Below, one piece after another: positions 21,740 through 30,206 of a stretch of DNA of 39,841 nucleotides. Each line of letters begins with the position of its first letter. The stretch's first letter is position 1. The notes below the pieces were generated by a model. That model was not told the DNA's origin. It worked only from the letters and a program-made list of their open reading frames with translations, and searched no databases. The position numbers and the translations under genes were made by a program. This DNA comes from a virus (taxonomy: Duplodnaviria; Heunggongvirae; Uroviricota; Caudoviricetes), in the IMG/VR virus record IMGVR_UViG_2711768002_000004. The stretch is one strand, 5' to 3'.

Positions 21740-23071
21740 TTAATCAATTTGTCCTTCCAGCACCTCAAGCATTCCGCCCCGGATATCCGATTTCAGCTTA
21801 TCCATATTGATAACCCGGTAAGCATTCACAATCACATCCAGTTTGTCGGGCTGACGTTTCAGACTGTACGGTGCATTAACGGCAATCTGCACACTGCCAT
21901 CCTGATTTTCCACGATATACATCAGATTGTTGTGCCGTTTGTCCCACAGTACCGCTTTTGGCCTTGCCAGCATTGCCGGTAAGCGCCCGAAGTCCTCCGG
22001 CGTCAGAGCGATGCCGTCATTCTGATGTTTCACACTGTCCGCATGGAGCACATTTTTACCGCTCATCGCCAGCAGGCGGGCCGGTGGCGTTCCCGTCCGG
22101 CTTTCCACTGCCTGCGCAATGCTTTCAGTCATAAAGCCCAGCGTGCGGATATCGTTACCACCTCGCCGGGTCTGCATGATGTTTTTTGCCCAGATGCGGA
22201 ACGCCAGCTGCCGCTCCGGGCTGTTGTTCATCTCCTGAACCACCATTTCCCGTAACGCCGGGCTTTTCACCTCGATCAGTTTGCGGATCAGCGCCTGGTC
22301 TGTGCCGAACGCTGCCGAGCCGGGGTTATATGACCAGCCCACATCCGGTGTCATGGTTCTGGCGCCATCTGAATATGTGGTCACCGGCATTTCTCTGACT
22401 TCTCCGGTCTGTTTATCCACGCCAGCCTCAACATTGCGGGTGGAGAGATGATCCTCACCGGATGAAACGGATAACCCCATTGCATCCAGACGGGCCTGAG
22501 ACAATGGCCGCACACGGCAGCGGCAGTTCCAGCCATTGGGCGGGTAGTGTGTTTTCCAGAACGGATCGTCATAGCGGAATACCAGACCGTTAAGGGCGGA
22601 ATGCGACGGGCGGGTACGGCTGTCCATGACCGCCACATACTGCCAGAACGGATGCGTGTCCGTGTTGTTCATCATCTGCGTGTAACGCCCGGCATTGTAA
22701 GCCACACGGGTGTTCACGTTGTAAATCAGCGCCAGACGACGGGGACTGCCCTGCTGCACTTCTTCCGCGTTACCGTCGCTGTCCACCACAATCTGCTTTC
22801 CCCACCATCCCAGCTTTTGCAGGCGTGGCGTCAGTGTGCGGATAAATTCTTTCTGTGAAATCCCCTCATCAATGGCCCGCTGCACTTCGGCCTGTAATGT
22901 GGTTACCACATCCAGCCGTGCCGTTTTTGCTGCCGTGAATGAGCGGGCATGAACATCCGCGTCTGTTTCGAACCAGTTCCAGCTGATATGCGCCCCTTTG
23001 GCGCGGAAGTATGCCACCGTCTCTTTTGAGGGAAGCGTGGCGGCATAACCTAAATCAATCCCCTGAGCCAT
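21740..23071 (-). CDS. Head morphogenesis protein (Mu F-like)
   Basis: 443 aa; contains NGWNCRCRV motif I recall from the Mu F family; follows the portal gene. Confidence 0.8.
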   Translation of the reverse strand: MAQGIDLGYAATLPSKETVAYFRAKGAHISWNWFETDADVHARSFTAAKTARLDVVTTLQAEVQRAIDEGISQKEFIRTLTPRLQKLGWWGKQIVVDSDGNAEEVQQGSPRRLALIYNVNTRVAYNAGRYTQMMNNTDTHPFWQYVAVMDSRTRPSHSALNGLVFRYDDPFWKTHYPPNGWNCRCRVRPLSQARLDAMGLSVSSGEDHLSTRNVEAGVDKQTGEVREMPVTTYSDGARTMTPDVGWSYNPGSAAFGTDQALIRKLIEVKSPALREMVVQEMNNSPERQLAFRIWAKNIMQTRRGGNDIRTLGFMTESIAQAVESRTGTPPARLLAMSGKNVLHADSVKHQNDGIALTPEDFGRLPAMLARPKAVLWDKRHNNLMYIVENQDGSVQIAVNAPYSLKRQPDKLDVIVNAYRVINMDKLKSDIRGGMLEVLEGQID

Positions 23072-24644
23072 CCAGCATCCCCTTCATTTCCGCAGCAAAC
23101 ATGGCATCACTGAGCAGCGTCATCAGGCGGGAATCATCCATTTCACGGTAAAGGGCAGGCAGGTCTGCCAGTGCCTCCGCCAGCCCCCGCGTTCTGATGA
23201 CATCAATGACCGGCTCCAGCACCGGATCGATGGCCTCCTGTAAGCGGCGGGCAGGCACCGCGTCCCCCATGTCGTCCAGTTCATCACGCGGCGTGTTTTT
23301 CGCTTCCGGCAGTCGGGCTGAAAGCGCCGTCTGTTCTGTCTTTTCCTGTTTTTCCGGTAGCGTTTCCCTGTCAGGCATGGCCGGTTCATTACTGCTCTGA
23401 CGGACACGGAATATGGCTTCACCGGGCGTGGGCTGTGGAATACCGGTCTGATCCCGTACCCAGGGATCAGGAATATCCATCCCCGCACTGAGTTGCATCA
23501 CCGCACTGGCTATTTTGGTGATATCCCCCGGTTCTTTGGTCTGGAAACAGATACGCGGCAGGCGACGGATATCAATGGCGTGGGCGGTGTTCAGGGCATA
23601 CAGCGGATACACCAGATCGCGGTTCAGGGTTGCAGCCAGCTGGCGTAAATCAGAATCCCTGATTTCCCGGCGCACCTCGTTATGCACCTCACCCAGCGAG
23701 CGCGCGCCTTTGTCTCCGGCTTCTGTGGTCAGCGTGCCGCCGAGTATTGCTTTGGAGATGGAACGCTCACCCCACGAAATCATGGTTTCAAACGGATCGG
23801 CCTGACCGTTCGCTGCCGCCTGAAACTCCAGCGACATCCCGGCCGGGATGATCCCGCCTGTACGTCGCCCGATATCCATCACCGCCCGCATCAGGGCACT
23901 TTTCTGCTCCGGTGTTGCCCCGGACGGGTATTTCCCGACCTTCATTGGCAGGCCGTACACCTCCAGAAATTCCGCCAGATCGCGCACGGAATAGTTTTTG
24001 AAAATGAACGGCCAGATAAGCGTTCTGACAAGCCCCGTCGCACCACCGTAGCCGGTGCGTGAACGCGACTGATGCACTATCCAGCCAAAGGGCTGAAACG
24101 CCACCCCGGCATGGCTGCCGTCACGCAGCCGCAGTTCGCTCAAATCATCCGGGTTAAGGCAGAAATGCCCGCTGTCACGCCAGCGGATGGCGCGGATGAT
24201 GTGCATTTTACCGAGCATCCCGTGCTCAATTTCCATGCAGGAATAGCCCTTCAGGATGGCATCCGTGGCGTCAAACAGCATGGCATCAAACCAGTCTGCG
24301 GAATGCAGATATTCGTCGAGCATTTCCGCGTCCTTTTTCTCATTCGCGCTGGCGTTCGGTGGCGGCTCAATACTCCATGGCACCCCCTGAATGGCAAGAC
24401 GTCGCTTGCCCAGCTCCGCAAAAAGGTGGGTGTCCTTTTCTTCAATATCAGCGGCCAGATCGGACTGGGCAATCAGATCGCCACGTTCAGCCCCGCGAAG
24501 GCACTGCGCCGCCCGGTTCGGGGTGATACCCGAAGCCGGATGTTCAATATAACGGCTGGCAATCTGCGGAATATCCAGCGCGGCACTCTGCATCTCCGGG
24601 TCAAAGGAGAAAGGTTTTCCGTCAGTATCAATGATGCGTCCCAC
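23055..24644 (-). CDS. Portal protein (Mu gp29/H-like)
   Basis: 529 aa directly downstream of the large terminase. Confidence 0.8.
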   Translation of the reverse strand: MGRIIDTDGKPFSFDPEMQSAALDIPQIASRYIEHPASGITPNRAAQCLRGAERGDLIAQSDLAADIEEKDTHLFAELGKRRLAIQGVPWSIEPPPNASANEKKDAEMLDEYLHSADWFDAMLFDATDAILKGYSCMEIEHGMLGKMHIIRAIRWRDSGHFCLNPDDLSELRLRDGSHAGVAFQPFGWIVHQSRSRTGYGGATGLVRTLIWPFIFKNYSVRDLAEFLEVYGLPMKVGKYPSGATPEQKSALMRAVMDIGRRTGGIIPAGMSLEFQAAANGQADPFETMISWGERSISKAILGGTLTTEAGDKGARSLGEVHNEVRREIRDSDLRQLAATLNRDLVYPLYALNTAHAIDIRRLPRICFQTKEPGDITKIASAVMQLSAGMDIPDPWVRDQTGIPQPTPGEAIFRVRQSSNEPAMPDRETLPEKQEKTEQTALSARLPEAKNTPRDELDDMGDAVPARRLQEAIDPVLEPVIDVIRTRGLAEALADLPALYREMDDSRLMTLLSDAMFAAEMKGMLDGSGD

Positions 24645-26311
24645 TACCAGCCCCCCCGATCAAATTCATGATATGCCTCATCGTCATCACGATAACCGCC
24701 CTCCATTGCCCGCGACCGCTCCTGTAGCGCCTGACAGGCTGATTCATCCAGGATGAAGCCCTCCATGTATGACGCCCGGTTTGCCATACAGAGCGCCACG
24801 GCAAAATCACCATGGCGGCGGGCGTTCGCAGCCGTTGCGTTCTGGTCCTTCGTGCGCCCCTTGTCGATTTGCGGGATACCATTCACTACCTTCACATGGC
24901 GCAAATCATCAAGCGTGGTCTGATGGCGGGCGACGAGGATATTCTGATCTTCAAACTCGGCTTTCAGTTTTGGCATCCACTCGCCGTACCACTTCGGCGA
25001 CAACATCACGCAGTCGATGATGTCCGGGCCAAAGGCCAGCAGTGCGGCCTCTGCCAGATAGCCGCCGTTACCGGTGGCGTCGAACGCCGCACCGACCAGC
25101 GCCGGAACGCGGGTCAGGATGTACATCATCACCTGTTCCTGCTGGGCATACGGCAGGTTGCGCAGCTCCACGCGAAACACCTCGCGCTTTGCCAGGGATT
25201 CGGTGATTTCCAGCAGCACAAAGCAGGACAGGTCACCGGTGCGGGCAAAGTCTTCCCCGAAGCTGAAGCGGGAACGGGGATTTAATTTCTCTAAAAGCGG
25301 TTTTAAATGTTCTTCACACCAGGTTAAAACTTCCGATTCACGCAGCCATGCGGCACGGCTGATGAAGTTGTCCGGGGCTTCAAACGTCAGAATCGGGATG
25401 TCGCGGATCATCGCCATTTCAATAAGCGCGTGGGGGATATAGGCACCGCCGGATTTTTTCGGGATACAGCCGTATTCCTCGTCGGCATCCTCACGGGTCG
25501 GGGCGTTTTTGTAGAGATCATCACGCCATTTCTGCTCGCTTTCCGGTGACCATTCCTGATCGGTGACGTAACAGATACGACGGTACAGCCCGTCCGCAAT
25601 GGCATCATCCAGGGTTATGCGGTGGACGCTGTAATCCTTGCGCCCCTCGCGGGCTTCCTGAATGTACTGATTAAACAGATTATCGACGCCGTTATGCGTG
25701 GAGATAATACGCACGCGCGCGCCCCACATAGTGAGCGCCATTGCCGCCTTGAGAAGCTCATCCAGTGACTCGTGGAACGCGGCTTCATCAATCACCACAT
25801 CCCCCTGAAGGCCGCGCAGGTTTGACGGACGGGAAGACAATGCCTGAATTTTGAATCCACTGTTCGGAAAGCGGATCATGTAGGTCAAAATTTCTTCTTT
25901 TTTATCCCGATCCCAGAATGTCTGCTCATACACATCAGCATCTGCCAGCTGGTTAAAGGCACGGGAGAACAGCGCGCAGGCAGAAATATATTCCAGCGCC
26001 ATCTCCTGCTTTGATCCCACATAAAACACATTGCGGCCACCACGACGCTTCGGTTTTGCAGCAGTAATGACGTTACGCCCGGCTTCCGCCCAGGTAAGAC
26101 CGGTGCGGCGGGATTTCTCCGCGATGCAGACCTGACTTTCATCTGCAAACCAGCGGGCCTGATAATCCAGAAACACCGGCATATCACCGGGCAAATCAAG
26201 GCTGTCCGGCACATCCACGCCCAGCAGGGCTTTTTCACCTGACAGATCAATTTTGCGGGGAGGCGTCATTTGCATCAGTGAAGGCGACGTTTCTCTGGCT
26301 TTGTTCATCAT
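24644..26311 (-). CDS. Terminase large subunit (Mu gp28-like)
   Basis: 555 aa; position and size; start overlaps the stop of the upstream small gene. Confidence 0.85.
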   Translation of the reverse strand: MMNKARETSPSLMQMTPPRKIDLSGEKALLGVDVPDSLDLPGDMPVFLDYQARWFADESQVCIAEKSRRTGLTWAEAGRNVITAAKPKRRGGRNVFYVGSKQEMALEYISACALFSRAFNQLADADVYEQTFWDRDKKEEILTYMIRFPNSGFKIQALSSRPSNLRGLQGDVVIDEAAFHESLDELLKAAMALTMWGARVRIISTHNGVDNLFNQYIQEAREGRKDYSVHRITLDDAIADGLYRRICYVTDQEWSPESEQKWRDDLYKNAPTREDADEEYGCIPKKSGGAYIPHALIEMAMIRDIPILTFEAPDNFISRAAWLRESEVLTWCEEHLKPLLEKLNPRSRFSFGEDFARTGDLSCFVLLEITESLAKREVFRVELRNLPYAQQEQVMMYILTRVPALVGAAFDATGNGGYLAEAALLAFGPDIIDCVMLSPKWYGEWMPKLKAEFEDQNILVARHQTTLDDLRHVKVVNGIPQIDKGRTKDQNATAANARRHGDFAVALCMANRASYMEGFILDESACQALQERSRAMEGGYRDDDEAYHEFDRGGW

Positions 26312-26556
26312 GCTTTACCTGTCAGAATGCTTTTGATTCGGGACTCAAGCTCTTCAGTCATCACGTCCACGCCGCTCAACTCATCAGTGGCAGCCTCTGC
26401 CAGCAGCGAATGCAGTTGTTCCAGGGATATTTCCCCGGCAATGCTGAGTTCAGTCAACTCACGACATACCTTTATGGTTTCAGGAGGTAACTGTGTTGCA
26501 AGACTGAATGCTTTCTGATGGGCACTGCTCATCAGTGAGCGGTTATCTGTTGCCAT
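26308..26556 (-). CDS. Small protein (82 aa) whose C-terminus repeats the C-terminal motif of the upstream gp27-like protein
   Basis: Strong GGAGGTG Shine-Dalgarno; ...TDELSGVDVMTEELESRIKSILTGKA versus upstream ...TDELRGVDGMSEQIEFRIRQMLLGKA. Confidence 0.55.
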   Translation of the reverse strand: MATDNRSLMSSAHQKAFSLATQLPPETIKVCRELTELSIAGEISLEQLHSLLAEAATDELSGVDVMTEELESRIKSILTGKA

Positions 26557-26566
26557 GATTCACCTC

Positions 26567-27148
26567 CTACGCCTTACCCAGCAGCATCTGCCTGATACGG
26601 AATTCGATCTGCTCGCTCATGCCATCCACGCCGCGCAACTCATCGGTGACCGCATTCGCCATCTCTTCAGCAAATGCGGCCCGGATTTCTTTTTCACGCT
26701 TAATGCTGCGCTCGGCGGCACTTTCTGCACGCTGTGCCGACAGGAGGATGTCCTTAATAAGGCGCATATCCACATCGCTGTCGCTGTTCAGGGATTCGGT
26801 GGCGGCACGCAGACGGCGGTACATCAGGGCACGGGACATCTCCAGAATCAGTGCCGTGGTTTCACCGGTCGGCTTATCCCCCAGTTCGGCCATCATGGCT
26901 TTTGTCTGCTCGCGTAAATCACGCAGATTACGGGCAATCAGCTCATTACGGGAGGCTTCCCGGCTGATGGCCGCCGGTGAGAGCTGCTGCTCTTCCGGCA
27001 GACCTGCTTCACGGATCAGACGGTTGATTTCCTCGCGGATCTGGACCTGCGTCAGACGTTTTTCACGCAGCATTTCCAGCAGCGGCTTACGGATGCTGTC
27101 GGGGAGCAAATCCACCTTGCGTACACGGCCACGCGCTGGCTTATCCAT
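26567..27148 (-). CDS. Mu gp27-like protein (putative terminase small subunit / DNA-binding)
   Basis: 193 aa, charged and helical, immediately upstream of the terminase; position as in Mu. Confidence 0.6.
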   Translation of the reverse strand: MDKPARGRVRKVDLLPDSIRKPLLEMLREKRLTQVQIREEINRLIREAGLPEEQQLSPAAISREASRNELIARNLRDLREQTKAMMAELGDKPTGETTALILEMSRALMYRRLRAATESLNSDSDVDMRLIKDILLSAQRAESAAERSIKREKEIRAAFAEEMANAVTDELRGVDGMSEQIEFRIRQMLLGKA

Positions 27149-27150
27149 CG

Positions 27151-27441
27151 TTACCCCCTTGCGCGTGGTTTCTTCACACCCGGAACGGTGGCGCGGCCTT
27201 CCGCCACATCCTGACCCCGGCCGGTCAGTTCAGCGATGAAATAACCGTTAACAAGCGTGCGCTTACGCACCAGTCCCTGCTCGGCAAGCCAGGCAATGTG
27301 GGTATGAACGGTGTCGCGGGACACGCGGTGACCGTAATCATCCAGGCAGTCCTGAAGCACGGATTCGCCCAGTTCGCCGTTGTAATCCGCCAGCGACCGC
27401 AGAATGACAAGACGCTGATCTTCAGTAATGAAATCACTCAT
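27151..27441 (-). CDS. Hypothetical protein (96 aa; Mu gp26 position)
   Basis: AAGGAAAAAA Shine-Dalgarno upstream of ATG. Confidence 0.5.
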   Translation of the reverse strand: MSDFITEDQRLVILRSLADYNGELGESVLQDCLDDYGHRVSRDTVHTHIAWLAEQGLVRKRTLVNGYFIAELTGRGQDVAEGRATVPGVKKPRARG

Positions 27442-27745
27442 TGTGTTTTTTCCTTACAGCCTGCTCCAGCAGCAGTTCGTTCTGATGGGAGACGGATTTC
27501 AGGGTGGCATTGGTGGCCTTAAGCTCACCGCGCAGGGTGGTGATTTCGATATTGAGTCTGTTCACCTCCTGCTGCGTGGGCAGGCCGGAAATCCGGCTCT
27601 CCACCCGCTCAACCCGGTCGGAGAGTTTTTCAAAGGCCTCGCGGGGGACAAAGGTTTTGCGCATCAGCGCCATGAAGATCCCCCCGGCTGTGGCCGTTGC
27701 CGACAGGATCGGCACGACATAATCTTTAACGATGCTGACCCACAT
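27434..27745 (-). CDS. Membrane protein with N-terminal TM helix and coiled coil (candidate lysis regulator; position of Mu gp25 'releasin')
   Basis: MWVSIVKDYVVPILSATATAGGIFMALM... then coiled-coil; GGAGG upstream of ATG. Function inferred from position only. Confidence 0.5.
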   Translation of the reverse strand: MWVSIVKDYVVPILSATATAGGIFMALMRKTFVPREAFEKLSDRVERVESRISGLPTQQEVNRLNIEITTLRGELKATNATLKSVSHQNELLLEQAVRKKHNE

Positions 27746-27953
27746 GACCGGCCTCCATGATGTTCTGGCAGTTCACACAACGGATGGCATCCGGCACGGC
27801 AACCAGACGGGCAGCCGGAATGTCACCCCCGCAGTCCGCGCATACACGCCTGCCCGGTGTCTCCGCCACCCGGCGCTTACGTGTCAGCCGGTCACAAAGG
27901 GCGCGTTCTGTTGCACGCTCCATGACTGCCTGAGCACAATCTGAATCATCCAT
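27726..27953 (-). CDS. TraR/DksA-family C4 zinc-finger protein
   Basis: ...CADCGGDIPAARLVAVPDAIRCVNCQ...; start re-picked at ATG 27953 (AAGGAAAAAGG upstream). Confidence 0.7.
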   Translation of the reverse strand: MDDSDCAQAVMERATERALCDRLTRKRRVAETPGRRVCADCGGDIPAARLVAVPDAIRCVNCQNIMEAGHVGQHR

Positions 27954-27963
27954 ACCTTTTTCC

Positions 27964-28335
27964 TTACTTCGTCTTTCCTGCCGGAACAGCAGTCGTTCCG
28001 GCCATATCAGTAAATTCATGCTGTCGCTGTGTCTCCAGACGGCGGATGCTGGCCTTGTCCACGTTGCAGTTTTTAATCACCGCCAGCAGTTGCAGGTTGT
28101 AAGTGACCGATGCACCAAACGTGAACGGCTGCGGCGCGGGAGGGACCAGGCAGTCAGCCAGCCATTCAGCGGGGATCGGCACCGGCTTCACCGGCACGTA
28201 TTTCACAGACGGCCCGCCGCACCCGGTCAGCCACATCATCAGGCACAGGCACAGCGGCAGCAGGCACCGTTGCCAGTGACCGGCGGACAATGCTCTGCTG
28301 TTCCTCGCTGTGCTGCATGTTCTGCTGTTTTTCAT
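27964..28335 (-). CDS. Outer-membrane spanin (o-spanin, Rz1-like lipoprotein), overlapping the i-spanin gene in another frame; start uncertain
   Basis: Hydrophobic stretch then lipobox-like LTGC followed by a Pro-rich sequence (PVKPVPIPAEW...PPAPQP); overlapped gene architecture typical of spanins. Confidence 0.5.
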   Translation of the reverse strand: MKNSRTCSTARNSRALSAGHWQRCLLPLCLCLMMWLTGCGGPSVKYVPVKPVPIPAEWLADCLVPPAPQPFTFGASVTYNLQLLAVIKNCNVDKASIRRLETQRQHEFTDMAGTTAVPAGKTK

Positions 28336-28628: not shown

Positions 28629-29129
28629 TCAGACTTTCGGCAAATCGTAACGACATAACCATTCATCCGCCGAACGGCGGGCCTCAAGACCGGGGAGTTT
28701 TACCCCCTTTGAATAAATCCAGCGGATATACTGCTTACAGGACGCGGGCATCTGCCCGGCATTGATAAGGCGCAGGAGCGTGGAGTTGCGAAAGTTCGTT
28801 TCACCGGCCCAGAAAATCCAGGAGGCCAGCGCCACCGTCTGACCACGGGTAAGCGGCACCTGAACATGACGATCGATAGCCGCAAAGGCCCATTTCATGT
28901 CCTTTTCCAGCAGCTCCAGACACTCTTCATCAGTTTTTGTCATCCCCGGTTTCACATCCGGGCCGGTATGGCCGTAACAGATGGTGGGGGTGCCGGTGGG
29001 ATCAATGTACGTGGTGTTTTCTTTCCCTTCCCAGTAGCCGGTGTAGTGCGTGGCAATGGTGAACGTCCCGGCTCCGGCCAGAACAAGGGCAATCAGCTTT
29101 TTACGCAGGGGTGCGGGGAGTTTTGGCAT
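28629..29129 (-). CDS. SAR-endolysin (lysozyme with N-terminal signal-anchor-release domain)
   Basis: N-terminal hydrophobic LIALVLAGAGTFTIA, then YWEGKENTTYIDPTGTPTICYGHTG (Glu-Asp-Thr catalytic spacing of T4/lambda-type lysozymes). Confidence 0.8.
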   Translation of the reverse strand: MPKLPAPLRKKLIALVLAGAGTFTIATHYTGYWEGKENTTYIDPTGTPTICYGHTGPDVKPGMTKTDEECLELLEKDMKWAFAAIDRHVQVPLTRGQTVALASWIFWAGETNFRNSTLLRLINAGQMPASCKQYIRWIYSKGVKLPGLEARRSADEWLCRYDLPKV

Positions 29130-29200: not shown

Positions 29201-29623
29201 TCAGAAAAGCCGTGGCTGCGTGCGTTCCTGATGCAGGCGACGCTGGTTGCGGATAACGGAGTAAATCTGCGTCTCTGACATCTGGTAGTGGCGGCGCAGG
29301 GTTTCAATTTTTTCGCCCTGGCTCCAGCGGGAAAAAATTTCATTATTGCGCAGTTCGGTGAAAAGGGATTCACCGACCGGGAGATAATAACCACGCCCGC
29401 CCATGTACCCGGCCTGTGCGGCTGCAACCTTACGGGCAAGCATTCCCGCCTGAGCAGGTTCAATCCCCTGACGGTGCAGTTCAGCACTGATCACATCAAC
29501 CAGGTCCCGCAGCGTGCCGGGCCAGTTCTTTTTCAGCTCATCATCAGGAATATCATCCAGACGGTCAATCAGCGCGTGCAGCTGTTCGCTGTCACCAAAC
29601 ATGCTCATCTGTGTTTCAGCCAT
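29201..29623 (-). CDS. Mor/C-family transcriptional activator (single copy; positioned like Mu C, directly upstream of the lysis genes)
   Basis: 140 aa; C-terminal ...GGRGYYLPVGESLFTELRNNEIFSRWSQGEKIETLRRHYQMSETQIYSVIRNQRR matches the Mor/C family pattern as recalled. Confidence 0.8.
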   Translation of the reverse strand: MAETQMSMFGDSEQLHALIDRLDDIPDDELKKNWPGTLRDLVDVISAELHRQGIEPAQAGMLARKVAAAQAGYMGGRGYYLPVGESLFTELRNNEIFSRWSQGEKIETLRRHYQMSETQIYSVIRNQRRLHQERTQPRLF

Positions 29624-29693: not shown

Positions 29694-30206
29694 TTAACGG
29701 GGGAATGATTTTTCATACAGCCTGCAAACACGCTCATAACTCATCACTGCACGTTCCGACATATCCAGGGCTGCCAGCATTTTGCGGCGGTGCCAGCGTT
29801 TGAGACGCTCCAGCACATCAGAGGCCAGCGCGGGTTGTTGCTCCAGCCACTGCCAGTTAGCCACACCTTCGCCGTCGTTCTGCGCGGCCGTCTGCGATTT
29901 CACCCAGCGGTTAAGGGCCGTTTCCCCGCCATCAGAGATAAATCCCTGCCGGTGCATCACTTTCCAGATGGCGCGAATTTTGGCGGTCACCGTACCCGGT
30001 TTTAAGGCCCGGTTAACCGGCTTCTGACGCACTTTAAAACCGCGTTTTTTGAAAACATCCAGCACGCGGGATAACTCACCGGGTGACATATCACGGCAAC
30101 TGGATTTGCCGGTGGCTGCCAGCAGCGCGGATGTATAGGTATCATGGTCAAGCTGTAGATCGCGTTTTGCGACATGTATTAAGGTAATCAGGGAAGCGCG
30201 ATTCAT
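29694..30206 (-). CDS. GemA-like protein (Mu gp16 / DUF1018-like)
   Basis: MNRASLITLIHVAKRDLQLDHDTYTSALLAATGKSSCRDMSPGELSRVLDVFKKRGF... resembles the gp16 family N-terminus as recalled. Confidence 0.55.
   Translation of the reverse strand: MNRASLITLIHVAKRDLQLDHDTYTSALLAATGKSSCRDMSPGELSRVLDVFKKRGFKVRQKPVNRALKPGTVTAKIRAIWKVMHRQGFISDGGETALNRWVKSQTAAQNDGEGVANWQWLEQQPALASDVLERLKRWHRRKMLAALDMSERAVMSYERVCRLYEKSFPR

Follow-up and report, generated by a model that had tools for sequence, protein, structure and literature searches.

Gene layout of the terminase region

The DNA analysed here (39,841 nt, referred to as the window) is an E. coli Mu-like prophage whose terminase genes lie on the minus strand. 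The first of these encodes a gp27-like small terminase subunit (TerS) of 193 aa (26567..27148), which matches Pfam PF11985 (Phage_Mu_Gp27, E=3e-33) over its full length, covers profile positions 1-173 of 173 and is therefore a member of that family. It also matches phrog_426, 'terminase small subunit' (E=2e-54). The gene is syntenic with Mu gene 27, which is annotated as the terminase small subunit, and it lies upstream of the genes for the large terminase subunit and the portal. The large subunit (TerL, 555 aa, 24644..26311, minus strand) matches phrog_2, 'terminase large subunit' (E=5e-43), is approximately 74% identical to Mu gp28 outside the N-terminus, and is followed by a Mu-type portal gene (PF06074).

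Between TerS and TerL is a small ORF of 82 codons (orf82, 26308..26556, minus strand), probably a chimeric one, which encodes a protein of pI 4.7 and matches phrog_30922 (E=7e-52). PGAP annotates it as 'hypothetical protein' in E. coli genomes. It begins 10 nt after gp27 and overlaps TerL, the TerL start lying across its stop. The coordinates that the first-pass annotation gave for gp27 and orf82 are correct, as is its statement that each gene has its own strong ribosome-binding site: reading upstream of the start codons gives AAGGGGGTAACG-ATG for gp27 and TAGGAGGTGAATC-ATG for orf82. The Shine-Dalgarno of orf82, GGAGGT (26562..26567, minus strand), overlaps the gp27 stop codon, and the same TAGGAGGTGAATCATGGCAACAGA occurs in the related prophage L006 and in a prophage remnant, CI5.

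The base composition of orf82 differs from that of its surroundings, with a GC content of 49% vs 58% in neighbouring genes (9 points below gp27). A promoter scan found no sigma-70-like promoter that would make orf82 an independent transcription unit, and a terminator scan found only weak terminator-like matches, three of the four antisense and none flanking orf82.

The TerL translation-initiation region, ACAGGTAAAGCATGATG (26306..26325, minus strand), lies in the last codons of orf82 and comprises an SD-like GGTAAAG together with the stop and start codons, which overlap. Mu and a related phage, L001, share this GGTAA[AG]GC-stop/ATG layout. Across Mu-like loci, the distance from gp27 stop to TerL start is -4 to 0 nt in 50/68, and nearly all small ORFs found between TerS and TerL likewise terminate on the TerL start. 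These layouts mark the TerS-TerL boundary of Mu-like phages as a place where genes are repeatedly inserted and where the succession of overlapping stops and starts leading to TerL nearly always survives. In L006, 120 nt of untranslated sequence precede TerL, so this family does not strictly require coupling into TerL.

A C-terminal tail shared by gp27 and orf82

The observation that started this analysis was that the 193-aa and 82-aa proteins both end in TDEL-GVD-M-E--E-RI---L-GKA, and this motif is correct as first written. The resident tail (tail A) is gp27 residues 163-193, MANAVTDELRGVDGMSEQIEFRIRQMLLGKA (26570..26662, minus strand), and its counterpart (tail B) is orf82 codons 52-82 (26311-26403, minus strand). 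Pairwise alignment, proposed along with the observation, shows that the similarity is significant: in a single BLASTP comparison, the two tails are identical at 18/31 residues and positive at 24/31, with no gaps (E=3e-10). gp27 also matches the family HMM of orf82, phrog_30922, at positions 51-82 (E=6e-8).

In the DNA, only the final ~95 nt of the two genes are similar; the copies are in register and their stops lie 259 nt apart. The 165 nt upstream of the tails show no gp27/orf82 similarity (score 17 vs 15.6 ± 2.3 for shuffled sequences), and duplication of an entire 259-nt unit was rejected, these 165 nt being no better than the shuffled null.

Tail B lies within the 3' part of orf82 (codons 48-82, 26311..26415, minus strand), which is homologous to the gp27 3' end of prophages that lack orf82 and carry another gp27 allele (C type, O157/Sp18-like). 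It has 18/84 mismatches to the C-type tail vs 27/84 to tail A and is thus closer to a foreign allele than to the TerS tail of its own prophage. The C-type tail is identical to tail A over the first 15 residues, while its last 13 residues have two differences to tail B and five to tail A. Its 3' half, LESRIKGILLGKA, fits the family consensus LE.RI..ILLGKA, leaving tail A as the odd one out. No exact donor of tail B turned up; among the sampled tails, the best match is only 79% identical.

The N-terminal part of orf82

The 5' part of orf82 (codons 1-34, 26454..26556, minus strand) shares its DNA with a 67-aa gene of L006 (orf67), which occupies the same TerS-TerL slot and has no tail. orf82 matches phrog_30922 over its full length (E=6.9e-52, residues 2-82 on profile positions 2-82), and orf67 matches positions 2-55 (E=3e-14). 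Tail-less genes of this type occupy the slot in related prophages, and the slot ORF of another locus, L045, gives a weak match (E=0.007). The first ~34-55 codons of orf82 thus belong to the phrog_30922 family of orphan small genes. Past codon 34, homology between orf82 and orf67 is marginal in protein (31/2000 shuffles reach the score) and not significant in DNA (278/2000).

This family, an 82-aa phage protein with no assigned function, is tiny. A word-indexed search of 5.8 billion proteins found 11 clusters, all from E. coli or metagenomes, and an exhaustive HMMER profile search through 1.84 billion representatives yielded no more than four close relatives or fragments. BLASTN with the unique 167 nt of orf82 gave no match among 50,697 phage records, and the only E. 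coli genomes that it hit were the 25 described below. orf82 has no Pfam match at E<=0.01, PF11985 included.

AlphaFold2 predicts four helices for orf82 with medium confidence (mean pLDDT 70), and low confidence for the tail (pLDDT 49-66). Foldseek of this model against BFVD gave no match at E<=0.001, and PDB sequence searches with gp27 and orf82 returned only noise. Proteins that hijack or interfere with terminases (e.g., Rpp and Ppi) showed no relation to orf82 in Pfam, PHROGs (phrog_30922 aside), BFVD folds or PDB sequences.

Junction boundaries in related prophages

The first-pass annotation offered two readings of the shared motif, a duplicated terminase-interaction module or a mosaic junction, and suggested comparing this region between related phages. 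We made this comparison with L001, L006, CI5 and Mu, and it revealed mosaic boundaries. In BLASTN, the alignment of the window with L006 runs from 30300 down to 26454 (orf82 codon 34), breaks, and resumes at TerL codon ~17; homology to both L006 and CI5 restarts only at 26263. With L001, the alignment restarts at 26415, i.e., orf82 codon 48, and 109 nt of L001 (3819-3927) align to both tail copies. From codon 48 onwards, orf82 and the first 16 TerL codons match the gp27 3' end and TerL 5' end of prophages that lack orf82. Codons 35-47 match neither parent at the DNA level, so the left junction can be placed only within codons ~35-56.

The exchanged junction cassette also takes in the hypervariable first ~16 codons of TerL (26264..26311, minus strand). 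Beyond the first 16-20 residues, the TerL proteins of the three types share ~98% identity; within those residues they can barely be aligned. Both flanks of CI5 match the window at 97.6-97.9% identity, yet its junction cassette is a different one. Complete E. coli genomes essentially lack the L006-type cassette; among them, CI5 alone shares the TerL 5' end of that cassette. These boundaries bear out the mosaic-junction reading, with the 5' part of orf82 shared with the L006 slot gene and the 3' part, along with the TerL start, shared with an O157-type gp27/TerL.

Distribution and selective constraint

The duplication is found in 25/5426 complete E. coli genomes, and this recurrence excludes an assembly artefact. 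Among 230 E. coli genomes with this Mu-like prophage family, approximately 205 lack exactly the 259 nt and 25 carry orf82. We examined 16 copies (eight from IMG/VR contigs, seven from E. coli loci and that of the window) which represent nine distinct DNA variants, and the 82-codon ORF is intact in all of them. Some copies of orf82 begin with GTG. orf82 is a real but fairly ordinary feature.

gp27 is under strong purifying selection, with 2 non-synonymous and 42 synonymous segregating sites, vs 26 and 17 for orf82 (Fisher p=9e-9). The tails differ in the same way: 0/10 non-synonymous/synonymous sites in the gp27 tail (counted among eight prophages) vs 6/5 in the orf82 tail (Fisher p=0.012), so tail B evolves under relaxed constraint compared to tail A. 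The pN/pS of orf82 is about 0.4-0.5, and the estimate of ~0.47 is marginally below 1 (p=0.015). Pairwise values for DUF2730 and TerL were left out, being unreliable owing to indels and a frameshifted copy. With orf82 intact in 16/16 copies and a pN/pS of ~0.47, some selection may act on its protein, and a contribution of the tail to a function is possible.

Five residues (A, G, I, L and G) are invariant or near-invariant across 45 unique gp27 tails, and tail A has all of them. Tail B keeps A, I and one G but has lost the other two: it has V in place of a Gly that is invariant in 45/45 tails, and T in place of a Leu present in 43/45 (96%). orf82 also lacks the EIRAAFA motif that is invariant in gp27 tails and belongs to the C-terminal residues of PF11985.

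Origin of orf82

We consider orf82 to be, probably, a chimeric accessory ORF derived from a mosaic junction between two E. coli Mu-like phage lineages. The second copy of the TerS tail was most likely left by recombination between related phages. One parent would have had gp27 with tail A, an orphan gene of the phrog_30922 family and TerL, as in L006 and CI5. The other would have had the standard Mu order, with the gp27 stop overlapping the TerL start, as in the C type. The exchange would have imported the second parent's gp27 3' end plus the first ~16 TerL codons. On the right, homologous recombination within the conserved PPRKIDL region of TerL may have resolved it; on the left, illegitimate or microhomology recombination inside the small gene may have done so. 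The product would be an in-frame fusion of the slot gene's N-terminal three-helix part to the last ~30 residues of a TerS.

Within the copied piece lie the ribosome-binding site of TerL and the stop/start overlap. The imported DNA would have brought both of these, the former within the GGT-AAA-GCA codons of 'GKA', so a slot gene could have become fused to the last 30 codons of a TerS because the same DNA holds the start signals of TerL. Because the fusion holds them, ribosomes would still run into the TerL start, and this flow would be a reason for orf82 to stay open without strong amino-acid selection on the tail. The boundaries of homology, the polymorphic presence of orf82, the relaxed constraint and the lost invariant residues are direct observations; which way the event ran, translational coupling as what selection acts on, and late expression together with the terminase from the Mu-type lys operon are inferred.

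The direction could also be reversed, with gp27-orf82-TerL as the ancestral order in these E. coli prophages and the form lacking orf82 produced by homologous deletion between the tail repeats. What separates the two forms is indeed exactly one repeat period (259 nt, in register), and the C-type tail looks like the hybrid that such a deletion would leave, matching tail A in its first 15 residues and lying nearer tail B in its last 13. We nonetheless regard this as improbable. The gp27-TerL overlap is the rule across the family, Mu included (the 50/68 loci above), it is tail A and not the C-type 3' half that deviates from the family consensus, and protein identity between C and A in the 5' half is expected under purifying selection on gp27. 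Moreover, C and B differ at 18/84 nt vs only ~5% in adjoining TerL, and the source of tail B would be left unexplained. In-situ tandem duplication of the last ~260 nt of gp27, with the 5' two-thirds diverged past recognition, would account for significantly similar tails lying in register exactly one unit apart. However, the N-terminal part of orf82 has its own homologues in tail-less slot genes, tail B is nearer a foreign allele, and the GC content of orf82 is 9 points under that of gp27, making this origin very improbable.

A separate question is whether tail B still works as a free-standing, putative TerL-binding module, e.g., by tuning TerS:TerL stoichiometry, as an adaptor, or as a decoy against C-type terminases. 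The C-terminal 20-40 residues of TerS bind TerL in lambda and P22 (PMC9026076; PMC7672466). orf82 has a strong SD, sits inside the terminase operon with no internal promoter or terminator, keeps 18/31 tail residues, is unbroken in each of the 16 copies, has a pN/pS under 1, and ends in a tail nearer the foreign allele than its own TerS tail. Nevertheless, we think a working module unlikely: the invariant Gly and near-invariant Leu are gone from tail B, which is also far less constrained (6/5 vs 0/10) and modelled with low confidence (pLDDT 49-66), ~205/230 genomes of the family manage without orf82, and neither Pfam nor PHROGs links orf82 to any known packaging-interference protein. In a more specific form of this idea, which we find quite unlikely, orf82 would be a 'tail-only' terminase ligand—an acidic three-helix protein with a captured foreign TerS tail that might regulate packaging initiation of its own phage or poison co-resident C-type terminases. 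The duplicated-module reading is therefore upheld only in part: the copied piece is the extreme TerS C-terminus, but it is a foreign-like allele under relaxed constraint that lacks the Gly and Leu.

Comparison with known systems

Mu itself (genes 27 (D) and 28 (E), AF083977) shares the synteny of lysis genes, 25, 26, 27, 28 and portal, and its gp27 is a PF11985 member with a conserved tail motif, ELRG.DG.SE.LE.RI..LLGKA. Unlike in the window, where a 259-nt insertion carries orf82, Mu genes 27 and 28 are only 7 nt apart with no gene between them. Searches of the literature for Mu gp27/gp28, and for TerS tails in connection with translational coupling, yielded no paper that describes orf82 or the Mu TerS tail.

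Phage mosaicism and 'moron' genes, as described by Hendrix and Hatfull, include accessory-gene slots and mosaic-junction ORFs. orf82 resembles these as an orphan small protein of lower GC than its neighbours, present in some prophages and absent from others that share 90-98% identity with them elsewhere, the boundaries being sharp. It also appears to resemble other mosaic junctions in having one recombination end in conserved sequence and the other illegitimate. Its presence/absence pattern and deviant base composition are those of a moron, but a classical moron would also bring its own promoter and terminator, which orf82 lacks. It further differs in that it would be translated within the terminase operon and that its 3' third is paralogous to the 3' end of the gene before it, from which type of sequence it was copied.

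Among TerS proteins, the last ~30-40 aa of lambda gpNu1 and the last 22 aa of P22 gp3 are TerL-binding tails (PMC9026076, PMC7672466). The segment duplicated in orf82 is likewise the acidic, extreme C-terminal ~30 residues of a TerS, located just before TerL and predicted to form a short helix after a flexible linker. However, its sequence is unrelated to the Nu1 and gp3 tails, and in orf82 it sits on an unrelated three-helix protein with no DNA-binding or oligomerisation domain. The packaging-redirection proteins Rpp and Ppi of PICIs/SaPIs bind terminase subunits, and Rpp is a TerS homologue without the TerL-binding tail (PMC9026076). They offer a conceptual parallel for the ligand reading only, as small proteins that engage the terminase, in that reading via a TerS-related surface. 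There is no homology, tail-less Rpp is the opposite of orf82, and orf82 is encoded by a phage, not a satellite.

Significance

Read as a mosaic junction, orf82 would be a case, visible in fine detail, of a new ORF made by phage mosaicism. It also provides a natural, ready-made construct for asking whether the conserved Mu gp27 tail is a TerL-binding element. If its tail does still bind TerL, orf82 would be a phage-encoded competitor of the phage's own TerS, which would be the more interesting case.

Gene order

A complete Mu-like prophage occupies the minus strand of the window. Its genes begin with a repressor and transposases A and B, followed by GemA (29694-30206), Mor (29201-29623), lysozyme (28629-29129) and the spanins. 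Next come a TraR/DksA zinc-finger protein (27726-28019; 97 aa from the first ATG), a DUF2730 releasin-like protein (27434-27745), a gp26-like winged-helix protein (27151-27441), the gp27-like small terminase (TerS; 26567-27148), an 82-aa ORF (orf82; 26308-26556), the large terminase (TerL; 24644-26311) and a Mu-type portal (23055-24644), all on the minus strand. This is the order of Mu genes 22-29. AF083977, the record for Mu, labels genes 27 and 28 as the small and large terminase subunits; the two are separated by 7 nt, and no other gene intervenes.

In RefSeq, the homologue of the zinc-finger protein is given a length of 75 aa (228 nt). The 22 additional codons at the upstream end in the window, which overlap the spanin region, are therefore probably untranslated. 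Opposite gp27 and orf82 lie antisense ORFs of 206, 120 and 70 aa (26619-27239, 26555-26917 and 26278-26490, plus strand). None of the three has a family match, and the opposite genes are under strong purifying selection; we treat these antisense ORFs as mechanical artefacts of a high-GC coding strand.

The shared tail

The first-pass annotation had proposed that gp27 and orf82 share a C-terminal motif, and a proper alignment bears this out: gp27 residues 163-193 (tail A) and orf82 codons 52-82 (tail B) align without gaps, with 18/31 identical and 24/31 positive residues (E=3e-10, BLASTP, single comparison). Independently of BLASTP, gp27 matches positions 51-82 of the HMM for phrog_30922 (E=6e-8), the family to which orf82 belongs; orf82 is not a member of PF11985 (Phage_Mu_Gp27). 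In the DNA, the likeness extends over the final ~95 nt of each gene in exact register, and the stops are 259 nt apart. Ahead of this stretch, the other 165 nt of each 259-nt unit resemble each other no more than shuffled sequence does (score 17 vs a null of 15.6 +/- 2.3). Each gene also has a good Shine-Dalgarno (SD) sequence of its own, as first noticed.

An assembly artefact is ruled out, because the same arrangement occurs in IMG/VR contigs and in 25 of 5426 complete E. coli genomes, at 29-30 places and up to three times per genome. The 16 copies we read comprise nine distinct DNA variants, and all have the 82-codon ORF intact. Their start codon (window 26554-26556) is polymorphic, with GTG in 9/16 and ATG in the window and six others (copies compared include L012-L014, L016, L021, L023 and L027-L029).

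Four junction types

By “slot” we mean the interval between TerS and TerL, which takes four arrangements among close relatives. In the window type, gp27 with tail A (…SEQIEFRIRQMLLGKA) is followed by 10 nt including GGAGGT and then by orf82, whose stop, at the end of tail B, overlaps the TerL start. The metagenomic prophage L006 has the same tail-A gp27, SD and start (ATGGCAACAGATAAC…), a 67-aa small gene (orf67) without a TerS-like tail, a further 120 nt and a different TerL N-terminus. E. coli CI5 (L004) has a tail-A gp27, a nine-codon small-gene remnant (MATDWFSYE*) and the L006-type TerL start. The C type (e.g., L001) is the common form: the small gene is absent and gp27 ends in an overlap with the start of TerL. 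It is found in O157:H7, in other Shiga-toxin-producing E. coli and in a Mu-like element inserted in Stx phages LC727881 and LC727895.

BLASTN against the window locates the boundaries between these types. L006 aligns upstream over 30300-26454, through orf82 codon 34 (89.2%), and downstream from 26263, TerL codon ~17 (95.9%); CI5 aligns over 28119-26546 (97.6%) and from 26263 (97.9%); and L001 aligns over 30179-26571 (88.7%) and from 26415, orf82 codon 48 (94.65%), with 109 nt aligning twice, at tail A and tail B. TerL proteins of the three types are ~98% identical except for their first 16-20 residues, which are barely alignable, so the exchanged junction piece (the cassette) spans approximately 26264-26453. 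TerL codons 1-16 (26264-26311) are hypervariable (MMNKARETSPSLMQMT, MNNAEELSPLLTNTVS and MSKRTGEEKIKPDTGLIKLS) and are carried along with it. Since the CI5 flanks are 97.6-97.9% identical to the window and the cassette differs, the junction was remodelled recently relative to backbone divergence.

These boundaries trace the 5' part of orf82 to the slot gene of the L006 lineage. The 3' part of orf82 and TerL codons 1-16 are the end of gp27 and the beginning of TerL from a C-like lineage. As judged from the alignments, orf82 is a chimera of a slot gene and a C-like gp27 tail. The phrog_30922 HMM aligns orf67 up to position 55, directly before the TDEL motif (E=3e-14), and orf82 has 49% GC (48% in its N-part) vs 58% for gp26, gp27 and the portal gene. 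In the AlphaFold2 model, residues 3-60 form three helices (pLDDT 71-84) and residues 68-79 a terminal helix (pLDDT 49-66), with a low-confidence loop at SGVDVMT; the model thus shows a small domain plus an added tail.

A weaker relative of the N-part, without the tail, occupies the same slot in L045 (3090-3287, 65 aa; phrog_30922, E=0.007), a prophage whose gp27 is 72% identical. This ORF also matches positions 917-974 of phrog_220, “minor head protein and DNA pilot” (E=2.5e-5). It begins MQ.KYDWY, as does the 87-aa slot ORF of L044 (3090-3353), and gp27 is 72-73% identical in these two loci. No further relatives of the N-part emerged when 1.84 billion representatives were searched exhaustively with a profile, which makes this an orphan family.

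Selection on the copy

We counted segregating sites across eight orf82-bearing prophages. Non-synonymous and synonymous sites number 6 and 28 in gp26 (ratio per site 0.07), 2 and 42 in gp27 (0.01), 0 and 10 in tail A (ratio not applicable), 26 and 17 in orf82 (0.47), and 6 and 5 in tail B (0.37). Against neutrality, whole orf82 gives p=0.015; Fisher tests give p=9e-9 for orf82 vs gp27 and p=0.012 for tail B vs tail A. Among 45 unique gp27 tails, the last 31 residues include invariant or near-invariant A, G, I, L (96%) and G columns. In all copies of tail B, the Gly is replaced by V and the Leu by T, and the invariant EIRAAFA motif just upstream is missing. Together, the selection data and changed residues indicate that constraint on tail B is much weaker than, or different from, that on a working TerS tail.

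Frameshifts are annotated in TerL in one of three copies in JE86-ST05 (L012), and in gp26, gp27 and TerL in RM13322 (L018); these are either decaying prophage copies or assembly errors.

Proposed translational coupling

A gp27 homologue (30-99% identity) and TerL could both be located in 68 IMG/VR loci. In 50 of these, the distance from gp27 stop to TerL start is -4 to 0 nt (37 at -1, eight at -4 and five at 0). In the window type, L044, L045, L081, L082/83 and the CI5 mini-ORF, small slot ORFs touch or overlap the gp27 stop at one end and finish on the TerL start at the other, the exception being L006 with its 120-nt spacer. In the window, the codons for the tail-ending Gly-Lys-Ala form an SD-like GGTAAAG before TerL, and stop and start overlap (GCATGATG). 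The CI5 mini-ORF (L004 1565-1600) has a strong SD and a stop that sits immediately within the TerL start codons; the layout for coupling thus outlives deletion of the slot gene.

In Mu-like phages further removed from the window, the slot is taken by unrelated small ORFs (L081 3061-3383, L082 2093-2299, L083 3082-3288), all chained by overlapping stops and starts. One slot-ORF family in such phages encodes 63-68 aa (phrog_1761/5120, E down to 7.5e-31), and the L081 slot also holds a 43-aa predicted membrane peptide.

Origin and role of orf82

Over the last 84 nt, tail B has 27 mismatches to tail A and 18 to the C-type tail; over the 3' 48 nt, it has 20 and 11. By these counts, tail B was not copied from the resident tail. 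In the reverse direction, the orf-less C type would have arisen by deletion between the two tails, which would account for the exact 259-nt difference and for the hybrid look of the C tail. We disfavour this direction because, across the family, overlap of gp27 with TerL and a tail sequence of the C type are the norm.

The TerS of lambda and that of P22 bind TerL through their C-terminal 20-40 residues (PMC9026076; PMC7672466). Position and conservation make the gp27 tail the obvious candidate for this role, and our literature search found no experimental evidence of TerL binding by the Mu gp27 tail. Window-type phages pair a tail-A TerS with a “B-type” TerL N-terminus, yet they occur across hosts and continents, in multiple copies in some genomes. 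A strict specificity pair between the final 13 residues of the tail and the initial 16 of TerL is therefore unlikely. We consider it improbable that tail B still docks on TerL, with orf82 acting as a modulator or decoy, and as a terminase ligand orf82 stands a modest chance. Of the two initial readings, the mosaic junction is supported, while the duplicated interaction module is unproven and is weakened by the relaxed constraint on the copy.

We think it probable that orf82 is a recombination-made chimera, built on a slot gene and kept open mainly for translational coupling. The in-frame fusion would have persisted because it leads ribosomes to the start of TerL, which would keep the ORF open while its sequence drifts. 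The behaviour of orf82 is that of an accessory gene occupying a mosaic slot, although the lack of a promoter or terminator of its own sets it apart from classical morons. We found no description of its partial paralogy with TerS in the literature. orf82 is a new and well-resolved case of a known process, in which phage mosaicism gives rise to chimeric ORFs.
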